DNA of 64,000 nt from a virus (IMGVR_UViG_3300021431_000090:43086-107085), one strand, 5' to 3'; positions 3,003 through 64,000 are shown, counted from the first letter of the stretch. Notes: generated from the letters alone by a model not told the origin. A program made the numbers and translations.

Positions 3003-3178
3003 AAACCACTACGAGCGTAACTCTTGAAGGAAAAGAAGTCAGAGCAATCATTGCAAAAGCATTGAACGTTCCAATTCCGAATGTGAAACCACTTCGGTAC
3101 AATTTCGCAATTGAAGGAATTGCGCCGGAAGTTGTGGAACAGAAGATCAAAGATTTTCTTGGGCAGTTAGTTACTTAA
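2999..3178 (+). CDS. small hypothetical protein
   Basis: GTG start overlaps the upstream TGA; 59 codons; stop lies in the TTACTTAA arm. Confidence 0.5.
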   Translation: MKTTTSVTLEGKEVRAIIAKALNVPIPNVKPLRYNFAIEGIAPEVVEQKIKDFLGQLVT

Positions 3179-58773: not shown

Positions 58774-58834
58774 GTAGCATTAGCATTACCCGCCATCGCT
58801 TGTGCTGTTCGCACGGAAGCTGCCCCGTGATGGC
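58774..58834 (-). ncRNA. variant HDV-like ribozyme candidate
   Basis: GCCAUC AC GGGGCA GCU UCC[GUGCGAACAGCAC]A AGC GAUGGC GG GUAAUG CUAA UGCUAC. Confidence 0.45.
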
Positions 58835-59813: not shown

Positions 59814-60104
59814 TCATATTAACTTTGTTGCCGCTCGTTTTAATCGCTCACCGGCGATAAAACAAGGCACCCTTTTTGCTGGAATTTCCACTTTCCCGTC
59901 TTGCCAATCCCTACCAATCCGAGAAGCCCTATCTTTTATTTCAAACGTACCGAACCCAGATAACTGAACACGATTCCCGTGTGCTAACTCATCTTCAATA
60001 ATCCCGAGTAACGAATTAAGAACAGCTTCAACATCTACAAGATGAAGCCCGGTATCATCCCTTATTCGATAGATTATGTCCGATTTGATTACTGTTTCCT
60101 GCAT
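59814..60104 (-). CDS. hup: HU-like DNA-binding protein
   Basis: V.LSGFGTF....R..R.GR....G..EIPA..VP.F.AG..LK. Confidence 0.9.
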   Translation of the reverse strand: MQETVIKSDIIYRIRDDTGLHLVDVEAVLNSLLGIIEDELAHGNRVQLSGFGTFEIKDRASRIGRDWQDGKVEIPAKRVPCFIAGERLKRAATKLI

Positions 60105-60647
60105 CGAAAACCTCACATATAACGATATATCTTCGTGATATTATCGCTTTCCTTACGTTTCATGCTCGGCCTATCCATTGCCTGCATCAAGAAATGCCAG
60201 ATTAAATACCAGCCAGCGACAAGAATCACTGCCCAGCTAAACACATTGTCAAGCATCCAAATTCCTCACTTTCCGCAACACTCTCGGCCATACATAAGAT
60301 ACAAATCCCTTGTCGCCGGATTCCCTGATTTCCACTAAACCACACCGTTTATCGACTGATAAGACAGAACAGCGTTTCCCGAAATAATCGACAGAATCGC
60401 CGTTTTTTAACTCTAAAGCATCGTAAATGCTCACAAAAACCCTCACTTTCTTTCATTTTTGTCGGGAACCTGACCGGGTGGCAAATGCCCATACTGTACA
60501 GACCCGGTCAGACGTTTCCCTTTATCGTCCCGCTTCTTTGAGTAATTCCTCAATTTCCACAAGGGAGCCGATAAAAATTTTGCAGAGTTCCATTTCCATG
60601 CGATGAACAAGCTTTGCCATAACGATCCTCTTTTGATTTTGAATTCC

Positions 60648-60700
60648 GTACAATTGGTTGGTTATCCATCCCCGCCGCGTGGAGGCCTGTACATGGGGAC
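60648..60700 (-). ncRNA. minimal HDV-like ribozyme A
   Basis: GUCCCC AU GUACAG GCC UCCACGC GGC GGGGAU GG AUAACCAA CCAA UUGUAC. Confidence 0.85.
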
Positions 60701-61402
60701 AGACGAGGCCCGAAAGCCCCGCCTATATAAAGAAAGGAGGTAAAGAATGAAAAAAGCTTAATAAGAAAAAGAAACAAGCGAGCATTTTTTACTATGCCTC
60801 AGCTTGTTTATGAATTTCCGCATGTGATATTCCGAATCAAACGATTTTGTTACCTTGTTCCCGGAAGCATGAACAATGAATGTTACCTTGAAATGCCCCG
60901 GTATAATTTCATGTCCAAGCATATGTAAAACCCTCTTCAGTATGCACATCTGTATTCCACCAAAATATCGTCGTAAATTTCCATCGTTCCCCGAGAGTCC
61001 ATAATCACTGCAAGAATGTCGCCCTCGGCGAGATCCTCACATCCGTAAAATCCCCACAGACAACCATTGCAATCAGAAGCCGTAACGAGATCCTTTTCAC
61101 GATCGAGATCTACAACCGTTATTCCCTTTGGGTACAAATCCCGTTCCCGTGATGCTATGTATCTTTCCTCGACAATAACCGCAAGAGAAAAAACCAGCGC
61201 AAGAACCAGCAGGAGCGATGTGTAGAATTCTAATTTCCGCATCATTGCTTATTCCTCACATCCCCAATAATCCGCACAATCGCACCGATACTGGAATTCA
61301 TCCCAATCAAATTCCCCAGTATCACGATCGGTGCATTCCCAAACATCATTGGAAACCCTATCGTTGTCCATATTTCCTCCCTCAAATCCCAGTTTTATTT
61401 CC

Positions 61403-61455
61403 GCACAATCAGTTGGTTATCCATCTCCGCGACGTGGACGCTTGTGCATGGAGAC
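61403..61455 (-). ncRNA. minimal HDV-like ribozyme B
   Basis: GUCUCC AU GCACAA GCG UCCACGU CGC GGAGAU GG AUAACCAA CUGA UUGUGC. Confidence 0.85.
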
Positions 61456-61874
61456 ATAATGAAAAACCATGCAGAGATAGCTTAGGTAGGAATCGCATAA
61501 ACCCGTGTTATACGCTCTGTGGTTCCGTGTTTTCGCCTCCCACGGTTGGCGTTCCCTTTGACATCAAATGCCTCTATCCCTGCATGGCATTCCGCAATTA
61601 ACCCGGAGCCATAAGGCCGGATTCCGCACGGCGGACACGCATAATCACGCGATTTCCGCAGGGCTTCGTGACCTTTTTCCCGTCTTCCTCGACCTCAACC
61701 ATGTTCTCGCAAATAAGAACATTGCTGACGCGCTTCATTTTCCCGCCGCAAGCCTTGCAATAGAAATCCTTTTCCCTCTTCGGGCGCTTGGTGATCCCGA
61801 AGAAATTCCCCAGTTCCTCAAAACCATAAAGTGTACGCATAAAAATCCCCCTTAAAAGATAGTTCGATTTCCTT

Positions 61875-61927
61875 GTGCAATCGGTTGGATATCCACCCTC
61901 GCCACGTGGAGGCCTGCACTTGAGGGC
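61875..61927 (-). ncRNA. minimal HDV-like ribozyme C
   Basis: GCCCUC AA GUGCAG GCC UCCACGU GGC GAGGGU GG AUAUCCAA CCGA UUGCAC. Confidence 0.85.
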
Positions 61928-62230
61928 ATGGGACGGAATCCGAAAACCCCGCCCCTATAGAGAAAGGAGAATGAAACATGAAAGCCTGTCAGATAGCCGC
62001 CATAGCTTTATGGCCTGAACCCCAGAAAACCCCAACTTTGAGGCTAACGGAATTTCCTTTGATGGTCACACCATCGGAGAAACGTGCGGTGTATTTCCCG
62101 TCGTCGTTGAAAATCTCATCACAAGTGATGCCGGATTTCCTTGCGATTTCCTCGCATTTTTCACGAAATGTATTGAACGGCATAACAAAAACCTCCCTTA
62201 ATTTTTGAAAATCAATGCCTTTTCAAATTC

Positions 62231-62282
62231 CTGCAATCGGTTGAAATCCAGCACCGCGACGTGGACGCTTGCAGATGGTGCC
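62231..62282 (-). ncRNA. minimal HDV-like ribozyme D
   Basis: GGCACC AU CUGCAA GCG UCCACGU CGC GGUGCU GG AUUUCAA CCGA UUGCAG. Confidence 0.85.
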
Positions 62283-62608
62283 ATATATGGCTTGTTATCG
62301 GACAGCAGCCCTAAACCGCTGAAATTCCCCGTCATATGTAAGGGATTAAACGGACTTTCAGAATCCGTGCAGATTAGCTATGATGATCTTTAATTCCGTT
62401 CGCATATCCGTAAAGCATTGCGCAACGTGCGAACGAAGCCATTGTTTCGACAACCGCCTTTTTCGAGATAAAACCCCGATCATAAAGCGTGATGATTGTC
62501 TCAATTTCCTTGCCGATTTCCTCATCAGTGGGCGGATTTCCGTTCCCGTCGATCGGGAAAAGATTGTAAGGCGCGGTAGTTACCATAAGCAAATTCCCCT
62601 TTCTTTTC

Positions 62609-62661
62609 GCACAATCGGTTGAATATCCACTCACGCCACGTGGAGGCTTGTGCATGTGAGC
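62609..62661 (-). ncRNA. minimal HDV-like ribozyme E
   Basis: GCUCAC AU GCACAA GCC UCCACGU GGC GUGAGU GG AUAUUCAA CCGA UUGUGC. Confidence 0.85.
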
Positions 62662-62716
62662 ATAAGGCAGAGATAAAAATCCCTGCCGATAAGATTCCTC
62701 ACGGAAAAAGGAAGCC

Positions 62717-63460
62717 TTACTTGGCTTCCTTGATTTCCCGCTGATCTACATCATATCCGGTTCCGCCGGTGAGGATACGATAGCATACCTTTTTCAGGTA
62801 ATTCCTCAGGGTCTTGTGGTTGGCCGCCGTGATGCCGGTTTTGCTCTTCTTGTTGTCGTTGGCATACACGTCGATGAGGTAATTCACATCATGTGAATTT
62901 CCCTTGAATTCCTCGCCGAGCATCTGACCGATAACGATATTCAGAGTCTTGAGGAGCTGGGTGTTGGAGCAGGGATTCTTGCCGAGGTCGATTTCCTTGG
63001 CGATCTGATTCATATAGAATGAATCGTTCTTGATGGTAGCGTTTACACGCTCGGCTGCACGGATGGTCAGATGATAGTTGAACTTCTCAGCGGTATAAAT
63101 CCACTTGGGGTCAGCGCCGATTCCCTCGAAACGCTTGTACAGGTCGCCGAGGTCGATAGGCTTTTCCGCATCTACGATAGAGCGGGTGATGTTCTTCGTG
63201 TCCTTGTCACGAACTTCCTTGACCTTAATGGTCGGATAGTTGAACTGAAGAATGGCCGCTTTCATCGGGTCTTCAGTCTTGCGAAGTGCCGCATAGCACT
63301 GTGCCTTGGAAACGCTTGCGAAATACGCAACGGCTTCCTCGAGATTGCTTTCAAACTTTGCCTTATCGGCAACGTTTTCAGCGTTGTCAGCAAGCTCAAG
63401 CTGCTGTTCTGCGATAACCTTGATCTCTGCAAGGTCGGTGGTTTTGATTTCGAAATTCAT
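62717..63460 (-). CDS. hypothetical early protein, probably highly expressed
   Basis: 247 aa; AAGGGAG SD; strongly biased codons. Confidence 0.75.
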   Translation of the reverse strand: MNFEIKTTDLAEIKVIAEQQLELADNAENVADKAKFESNLEEAVAYFASVSKAQCYAALRKTEDPMKAAILQFNYPTIKVKEVRDKDTKNITRSIVDAEKPIDLGDLYKRFEGIGADPKWIYTAEKFNYHLTIRAAERVNATIKNDSFYMNQIAKEIDLGKNPCSNTQLLKTLNIVIGQMLGEEFKGNSHDVNYLIDVYANDNKKSKTGITAANHKTLRNYLKKVCYRILTGGTGYDVDQREIKEAK

Positions 63461-63873
63461 TTTCTTTCTCCCTTTATAAATTATATTTGAGCCTTTGGCT
63501 CATTAGAGCAGACGAACGATCACGCTCGCCTGCCGTGTATGAACCAAAGCCCCATAGGGCTTAAATTTCGTTATCAATTACTCTGCATGCCCAACCATAT
63601 CCGCTTTTCGTGCTTTCTCATTCCTTGGAATCCATACGGCACCCTTGGGTGGATACTTGAACTATTACGGAAACAGCTTTGCAAGCTTTGTAACCCGAGC
63701 GCATTTTCAGTATGTGCACTCACACCATACCCCTAATTTGTCATCTAACTCGGGTTAACTCTTGGGGTGTTCACAAGCCGAACCATAAGCCTAACTCTTA
63801 TGCACCAAGCGCCGTCTTGATTTACAAGATAACCTTTTCTTTATAGTCTTTAAGGTAGACTCGAGAGTTTTGA

Positions 63874-64000
63874 CCTGTCGGGCGGTCGCTTCTCTCACCC
63901 TTAACCGCAAGGGGTGGGGTGTGGTCTGCTGTCGTCCTGTCGGGCGGTCGCTTCTCTCACCCTTAACCGCAAGGGGTGGGGTGTGGTCTGCTGTCGTCCT
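63874..64000. repeat. 62-bp exact tandem repeat running off the window
   Basis: Units 63874-63935 and 63936-63997 are identical; a third begins at 63998. Confidence 0.9.

Follow-up and report, generated by a model that had tools for sequence, protein, structure and literature searches.

Hepatitis delta virus-like ribozyme folds between small genes of a tailed phage and their proposed role in dividing the leftward transcript

Results

We analyzed a stretch of 64,000 nucleotides (nt) of virus DNA (IMGVR_UViG_3300021431_000090:43086-107085; hereafter, the window, from whose first letter the features are counted), in which five short elements that resemble the hepatitis delta virus (HDV) ribozyme, here called A to E, lie between small genes at 60648-62661. 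The record is the complete genome of a tailed phage, 107,085 bp in length and with direct terminal repeats. A plus-strand block from 1.4 to 52 kb holds the terminase, portal, and tape measure genes, and a minus-strand block extends leftward from the right end to ~52 kb and holds, one after another, RAGATH-16 RNA, a gene for a protein of 247 amino acids (aa), the small genes separated by the ribozymes, HU, reverse transcriptase, tRNAs, DnaB helicase, primase, DNA polymerase, NrdD, and integrase. A to E are placed in the first ~3 kb of this nonstructural, leftward arm. A preliminary description of the locus had called it an early operon, which is a reasonable inference from this position.

The five elements split the order of genes into 247, 70, 64, 80, 40 plus 102 (plus 63), and 32 aa, all on the minus strand. 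The 247-aa orphan gene is the first of the arm (62717-63460), followed by a 70-aa orphan gene downstream of E (62374-62586), a 64-aa orphan gene downstream of D (61989-62183), a CxxC-containing 80-aa orphan gene downstream of C (61598-61840) that has a homologue in contig L092, the 40-aa and 102-aa genes downstream of B (60937-61371), and a 32-aa open reading frame (ORF) downstream of A (60522-60620) that is called as a gene in L156. A codon-usage score was derived from the long genes in the same genome (training mean, 0.27); by this measure, the ORFs of 247, 70, 64, 80, 40, and 102 aa scored 0.19 to 0.34. Plus-strand ORFs that overlap the region (76 to 127 aa, some with good Shine-Dalgarno sites) had negative scores and were rejected. 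The 247-aa protein has no match in Pfam, PHROG, NCBIfam, or PDB. Nothing informative was obtained from these four databases for the small genes either, the sole match among them being a weak one of the 80-aa gene to a PHROG of unknown function; HU is named further downstream.

All five elements are encoded on the minus strand, co-oriented with these genes: E at 62609-62661 (53 nt; first nucleotide, G1, at 62661), D at 62231-62282 (52 nt; G1 at 62282), C at 61875-61927 (53 nt; G1 at 61927), B at 61403-61455 (53 nt; G1 at 61455), and A at 60648-60700 (53 nt; G1 at 60700). Their fields follow each other in the order P1-J1/2-P2-P3-L3-P3'-P1'-GG-linker-J4/2-P2', which is that of the HDV nested double pseudoknot, with P2 formed as a pseudoknot by the segment after J1/2 and the 3' end of the element. 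Ribozyme E, for example, reads GCUCAC-AU-GCACAA-GCC-UCCACGU-GGC-GUGAGU-GG-AUAUUCAA-CCGA-UUGUGC. P1 has 6 bp, opens with a G1·U pair in every copy, and comes in five different sequences; J1/2 is AU or AA; P2 has 6 bp in four versions and can be extended to 7 bp by a U·G pair in four copies; and the 3-bp P3 covaries between GCC/GGC and GCG/CGC, the latter in B and D. L3 is UCCACGY, and its CC and the GG that follows P1 are available for P1.1, UCC and GG being invariant. P4 is replaced by a 7- to 8-nt linker, AUAWYCAA. J4/2 is CCAA (as in A), CUGA (B), or CCGA, and the putative catalytic C44, assigned by comparison of sequences, is invariant. In every feature, this is the layout that the preliminary description had given for five elements of 52 to 53 nt.

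The nested double pseudoknot was written onto the alignment of the five copies, which gives 17 pairs × 5 copies = 85 pair cells. Standard pairs occupied 85 of the 85 cells (100%), and both sides had changed in 8 of the 17 pairs (4 in P1, 3 in P2, and 1 in P3), in agreement with the earlier statement that pairing is always kept with P1 different in five of five copies and P2 in four versions. When the 3' partners were moved by 1 to 3 columns as a control, pairing fell to 31 to 49%, with 0 to 1 compensatory pairs. A strict descriptor search, extended over the complete 107,085-bp genome, matched A to E only, compared to 0.05 matches per dinucleotide shuffle. When the genome was scored with a covariance model of P1 and P3, from which P2 was left out, the five elements reached 70 to 78 bits (A, 77.9; B, 78.1; C, 78.5; D, 69.9; and E, 78.5) and the rest of the genome at most 14 bits. 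Furthermore, a pattern scan of IMG/VR, filtered by the descriptor and the covariance model, yielded 44 unique relatives at 28 loci, with 22 distinct P1 strands and 35 distinct P2 strands. In these relatives, 5.57 of 6 positions of P2, which is outside the model, pair with their own partner versus 2.80 of 6 with the partners of other sequences, and in L150, the syntenic copy shows covariation of P1.1, with UC/GA in its place. Taken together, these data support the view that the five elements are minimal HDV-like ribozyme folds, intergenic, co-oriented with the genes, and upstream of small ORFs.

Minimal HDV-like ribozymes of gut Caudoviricetes have been described as theta ribozymes (Kienbeck et al. 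2024; PMC10879173). The RNArobo descriptor of that study runs P1, J1/2, P2, P3, U, CC, NCGY, P3', P1', GG, short linker, CNRA(N), and P2', and A to E agree field by field with the delimited theta sequences in the part of the published material compared: they share the order of elements, a 3-bp P3, an L3 of U-CC-NCGY, the GG, a short linker in place of P4, and a J4/2 of C-N-R-A. The same subtype, with a 6-bp P1, a AUAACCAA linker, and CCAA, is present in the portion of the supplementary lists compared, as are entries with a 6-nt P1, a ATAACCAA linker, and CCAA, CCGA, or CTGA; exact copies of A to E were not found among these supplementary sequences. Both groups occur in tailed phages, in noncoding DNA, and sense to the nearest gene. 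In the tRNA-associated theta class (58%), the cleavage site and the 3' end of a tRNA are at most 5 nt apart in either direction; another 526 occurrences (42%) are not tRNA-linked, over 96% are sense to the nearest gene, and their function was left open (PMC10879173). The tRNAs of the phage (at 48245, 49253, and 57773) adjoin none of the ribozymes, the nearest being ~2.8 kb off, which places A to E in the published non-tRNA class. The location away from tRNAs noted in the preliminary description is real, and as a novelty it had been anticipated by the 526 occurrences already published. Three members of the subtype in other phages (L024, L096, and L097) stand exactly at tRNA-Met 3' ends, and four tRNA-linked theta ribozymes show Mg2+-dependent cleavage 5' of G1 in vitro, which is abolished by the C-to-U exchange. 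Judged by their sequences, A to E are theta ribozymes of the non-tRNA class.

A candidate sixth HDV-like fold is found ahead of the next gene block (58774-58834, minus strand). It has a G1-C pair and the classic theta tail GG-GUAAUG-CUAA, but P2 contains one G·A mismatch, and L3 is enlarged by an inserted hairpin of 10 nt; it reaches 6 bits only with the covariance model and remains a candidate.

Closer inspection of the spacers revealed RNA structure that ends just before G1. A 10-bp hairpin (60701-60724) ends at position −1 of A, with a gap of 0 nt, and is kept with the ribozyme in G002; an 11-bp hairpin (61930-61955) ends 2 nt before G1 of C; and a 9-bp hairpin (62666-62687; segment z = −4.9) ends 4 nt before G1 of E, all on the minus strand. 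A structured noncoding stretch (61461-61593, minus strand) closes 5 nt before G1 of B. The 145-nt segment folded for it (61456-61600), between the 80-aa gene and B, has a folding energy of −49 kcal/mol (z = −4.4) and no Rfam match. Directly upstream of D, a 36-nt block (UUUAGGGCUGCUGUCCGAUAACAAGCC...; 62283-62318, minus strand) is 86 to 91% identical in two other phage contigs (G002 61668-61703 and G003 3036-3083), where it also precedes a ribozyme; it is nearly invariant in the three phages, and its conservation is above that of the ribozyme stems. In 18 of 19 folded relatives from other phages, a hairpin of 5 to 14 bp and of unrelated sequence ends 0 to 4 nt before G1. A hairpin just before G1 is a general feature of the family.

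Downstream of the ribozymes, the distance from the 3' end to the start codon is 27 nt for A, 31 nt for B, 34 nt for C, 47 nt for D, and 22 nt for E, and each of these start codons is led by a clear Shine-Dalgarno site; the measured 22 to 47 nt match the "roughly 20-50 nt" of the preliminary description. An ORF starts 6 to 41 nt downstream in 29 of the 41 unique family members. In G004, the stop codon is 21 to 24 nt before G1 and the ATG 20 to 26 nt after the ribozyme in the seven copies parsed by the strict descriptor. For most of the published non-tRNA theta copies, the distance to an annotated ORF exceeds 200 nt (PMC10879173).

A scan of the spacers found no sigma-70-type promoter on the minus strand, and no motif common to all five spacers was found. 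The idea of a promoter in each spacer was rejected, hand inspection of the A, C, and G002 spacers having given no register common to all. A CU-rich spacer, ACCUCCUUUCUUU, precedes the hairpins of A (60725-60757), C (61956-61985), and a G002 copy (L147 ~1480-1515). We take it to resemble the 3' tail of 16S ribosomal RNA, and one may speculate that it could pair with the downstream Shine-Dalgarno sites until cleavage. The opposite strand reads AAAGGAGG plus ATG and opens nonconserved tiny ORFs.

The relatives show how the modules are distributed. A related-locus search with the 247-aa protein returned none; the larger protein search gave at least 100 homologous clusters of 42 to 99% identity, many of them on 95- to 130-kb contigs. 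A blastn search versus annotated phages matched only the tRNA-Leu of crAss-like phages. The relatives keep the order RAGATH-16, 247-aa gene, small genes, and HU, and in one syntenic relative, a ribozyme copy directly follows the 247-aa gene, which is the position of E. Three independent contigs, in which the 247-aa gene is 99% identical, retain A to D at the same model scores, and D with its flanks is identical where aligned; in the same three contigs, E and the 70-aa gene are missing together. The hairpin-ribozyme modules of A and D are 78 to 91% identical in phages whose flanking genes lack DNA similarity. Copy number reaches 11 on one strand within 8 kb in G004, and there are three copies each in G003 and G005 and three in L023/L056. 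On the basis of the insertion/deletion and copy-number comparisons, the ribozyme behaves as a unit with the downstream gene, and its copy number changes fast.

A TATAAA box at 63845-63840 precedes the start of the RAGATH-16 RNA (63759-63829, minus strand) by ~10 nt, and the leftward transcript may have its 5' end at this site. The distance from the RAGATH-16 RNA to the 247-aa gene downstream is ~300 nt, in this phage as in two relatives (L150 5643-5713 and L151 288-358), and since the pairing of the two is kept in all of them, we regard the RAGATH-16 RNA and the 247-aa gene as a conserved unit. Genes for an RNA ligase (PF09414) or RtcB (PF01139) were not found in the phage genome. Relatives with the same operon layout (L151 3672-4304, L153 1-1039, and L150 4576-5448) carry an RNA ligase gene (PF09414) among the small genes; in addition, their divergent arm has a gene for a YonO/RdRP-type polymerase, and the 247-aa homologue is immediately preceded by a sigma-70-like gene.

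The motif GGAAWT occurs 31 times on the minus strand versus twice on the plus strand at 60000-63000 (~10 per kb versus ~2 per kb elsewhere) and 161 times in the whole window versus 103 ± 9 times in shuffles. Copies stand in all reading frames and in spacers, with one copy 0 to 12 nt past the 3' end of every ribozyme, and L150 has GGAAU at the same spot after its ribozyme. Exact 62-nt tandem repeats are present at both ends of the record (window 63874-63997; genome 1-130), inside the direct terminal repeat region.

Discussion

Our data point toward a device in which the five ribozymes probably cut the leftward transcript into separate hairpin-ended, ribozyme-headed messages. We consider this the best reading, with a probability of roughly 0.6. 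With the polymerase reading through a spacer, the ribozyme would fold during transcription and cleave 5' of G1. The upstream product would then end in the stable hairpin plus 0 to 5 nt, with a 2',3'-cyclic phosphate, and this hairpin end would be comparable to the acceptor stem with which the upstream product terminates where a theta ribozyme is linked to a tRNA. The downstream product would start with a 5'-OH and the compact ribozyme, followed 22 to 47 nt on by the Shine-Dalgarno-led start codon. Self-cleavage of A to E would, in this way, deliver separate messages with defined ends and uncouple the genes from their neighbors without requiring a host nuclease, and the stability or translation of the messages may be altered.

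Several observations weigh against this model. Terminator-like hairpins with U tracts precede at least E and A: one of them (62702-62740, minus strand; z = −3.8) lies over the stop codon of the 247-aa gene and is followed by UUUUUCC, and another, with a U-rich tract, is found upstream of the A module (60760-60809, minus strand). Strong classic terminators precede both G002 copies. Because of these hairpins, some units could be transcribed on their own or termination could be incomplete, and the notion of one polycistronic mRNA in the preliminary description is weakened. Furthermore, D has a weak upstream hairpin only, and the syntenic relatives hold 0 to 1 copies detectable with the covariance model and, therefore, the ribozymes are dispensable for the operon. 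No HDV-like family was matched in Rfam at the gathering thresholds; in a permissive search, the best scores of HDV-like families (CPEB3 [RF00622], drz-agam-1 [RF01787], and others) were 17.5 and 16.2 bits versus thresholds of 37 and 35. The Rfam models of these families contain a P4 domain, which A to E do not have. Finally, the effect on stability could be negative: according to the account of the glmS ribozyme of Bacillota in PMC3328962 (citing Collins 2007), its 5'-OH mRNA product is degraded by RNase J1 in Bacillus subtilis. This weakens the earlier proposal that the 5'-OH shields the message from RNase J. Since the 5'-OH itself is not protective, the compact fold, in which G1 is buried, would have to be the source of any protection.

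The terminator-like hairpins before E and A and the terminators before both G002 copies would also suit a different arrangement, in which an unrecognized promoter for every gene or gene pair lies after the upstream terminator and before the hairpin. Instead of cutting a polycistronic RNA, the ribozyme would then only remove a short 5' leader, set a defined 5' end, and act as a natural insulator. The near-invariant 36-nt block upstream of D is of the kind that a protein- or polymerase-binding site might be, and relatives encode YonO/RdRP-type polymerase and sigma-like proteins, which would fit. However, the spacers contain neither a detectable sigma-70-type promoter on the minus strand nor a motif common to all five, and the 21 to 24 nt between stop codon and G1 in G004 leave no room for a promoter. 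We regard such leader trimming as unlikely.

The fate of the glmS product raises the question of whether the 5'-OH ends are built-in destabilizers, attacked by host RNase J-type exonucleases so that early messages are shorter-lived and the early genes are shut off. The strong Shine-Dalgarno sites and the anaerobic NrdD gene would fit a Bacillota-type gut host with RNase J. However, the compact double pseudoknot hides G1 within P1 and leaves no single-stranded 5' tail, constitutive self-destruction of a message is hard to square with strong ribosome-binding sites just downstream, and the conserved upstream hairpin suggests that protection of ends is the selected feature. On balance, a destabilizing role appears quite improbable.

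The promoter-early stem-loops of T4-type phages offer a parallel for a third possibility, that the hairpin-ribozyme modules are mainly recombination sites for small early genes, with RNA cleavage secondary or selfish. The modules are 78 to 91% identical between phages with dissimilar flanking genes, phages that are 99% identical either have both E and the 70-aa gene or lack both, and related or similar phages have between 0 and 11 copies. However, P1 and P2 differ in almost every copy with pairing kept and catalytic positions invariant, which speaks for selection on the RNA fold rather than on identity of the DNA, and the longest identical stretches between copies are short; we give this explanation very little weight as the main role. 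A repeated regulatory hairpin (a protein-binding site or attenuator) that fits the HDV descriptor by chance would agree with the lack of an Rfam family at threshold but is hardly credible, since it needs neither the covarying P2 pseudoknot nor the invariant UCC...GG...C-N-R-A, members of the subtype stand exactly at tRNA 3' ends like the theta ribozymes that were tested, and the ribozyme families among the sub-threshold Rfam matches are HDV-like only, with both strand (minus) and register correct.

Cleavage of the leftward transcript by the ribozymes may have a broader counterpart: tentatively, and at somewhat less than even odds, we suggest that hairpin and theta ribozyme together constitute a general, protein-free device of phages for forming mRNA ends, swapped with the downstream gene as a plug-in cassette. 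If so, it would provide the upstream gene with a hairpin-protected 3' end, as it forms the 3' ends of tRNAs in other phages, and the downstream gene with a structured 5' end. The roughly 40% of theta ribozymes for which Kienbeck et al. 2024 left the role open would thereby gain a function. Our understanding of HDV-like catalysis and of phage gene expression would stay unchanged. The open role of the non-tRNA theta ribozymes becomes testable by the combination of hairpin, spacing, and indel: the layout is a stop codon, an optional terminator-like hairpin, a GC hairpin at the cut site, the ribozyme, a ribosome-binding site, and the gene, and with E and the 70-aa gene, a natural presence/absence variant is at hand.

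Compared to the theta ribozymes studied by Kienbeck et al. 2024, which were tRNA-linked, A to E are of the non-tRNA class and 22 to 47 nt upstream of start codons, and that study describes neither clusters between consecutive genes nor a hairpin right before G1. Clusters are known from another class: hammerhead ribozymes flank single prophage genes, ~2-kb transcripts are cut in vitro, and a role in processing was proposed (Perreault et al. 2011; PMC3088659). The same processing idea has been put forward for twister (2019 review; PMC6765202). Hence, with the arrangement already published for other ribozyme classes, the processing idea is not new. Like the hammerhead clusters, A to E are several co-oriented ribozymes that flank single genes or short blocks of small, variable, mostly orphan phage genes; in both cases, processing of long phage transcripts into single-gene messages is proposed, and a RAGATH RNA adjoins the locus. 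Unlike the hammerheads, A to E are HDV-like and known here from sequence alone, and the whole ribozyme would stay on the downstream product. What is new is the conserved hairpin before the cleavage site, the tight spacing to start codons, and the indel of ribozyme plus gene.

The early transcript of phage T7 is cut by RNase III at five places between genes 0.3 and 1.3, with hairpins left at the 3' ends. The analogy to it drawn in the preliminary description is apt and is strengthened by the hairpins that end just before the cleavage sites, on which that description had laid no emphasis: in both phages, an early arm would be cut between genes, with an upstream product that ends in a protective stem. 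In T7, however, a host protein cuts and leaves a 5'-phosphate and a 3'-OH, whereas here the RNA would cut itself, giving a 5'-OH and a 2',3'-cyclic phosphate. The glmS ribozyme likewise cleaves in a 5' leader and yields a downstream mRNA with a 5'-OH, but its cleavage depends on a metabolite and marks the message for decay, and no ligand pocket is evident in A to E. The engineered insulator RiboJ, a self-cleaving ribozyme just upstream of the ribosome-binding site, makes expression independent of the upstream RNA; it is synthetic and built on another ribozyme class, and A to E would be its natural counterpart. If the model is confirmed, hairpin and ribozyme together would offer a small, naturally occurring module for producing defined RNA ends, and the hammerhead, twister, and HDV-like classes would share one job in the early operons of phages.

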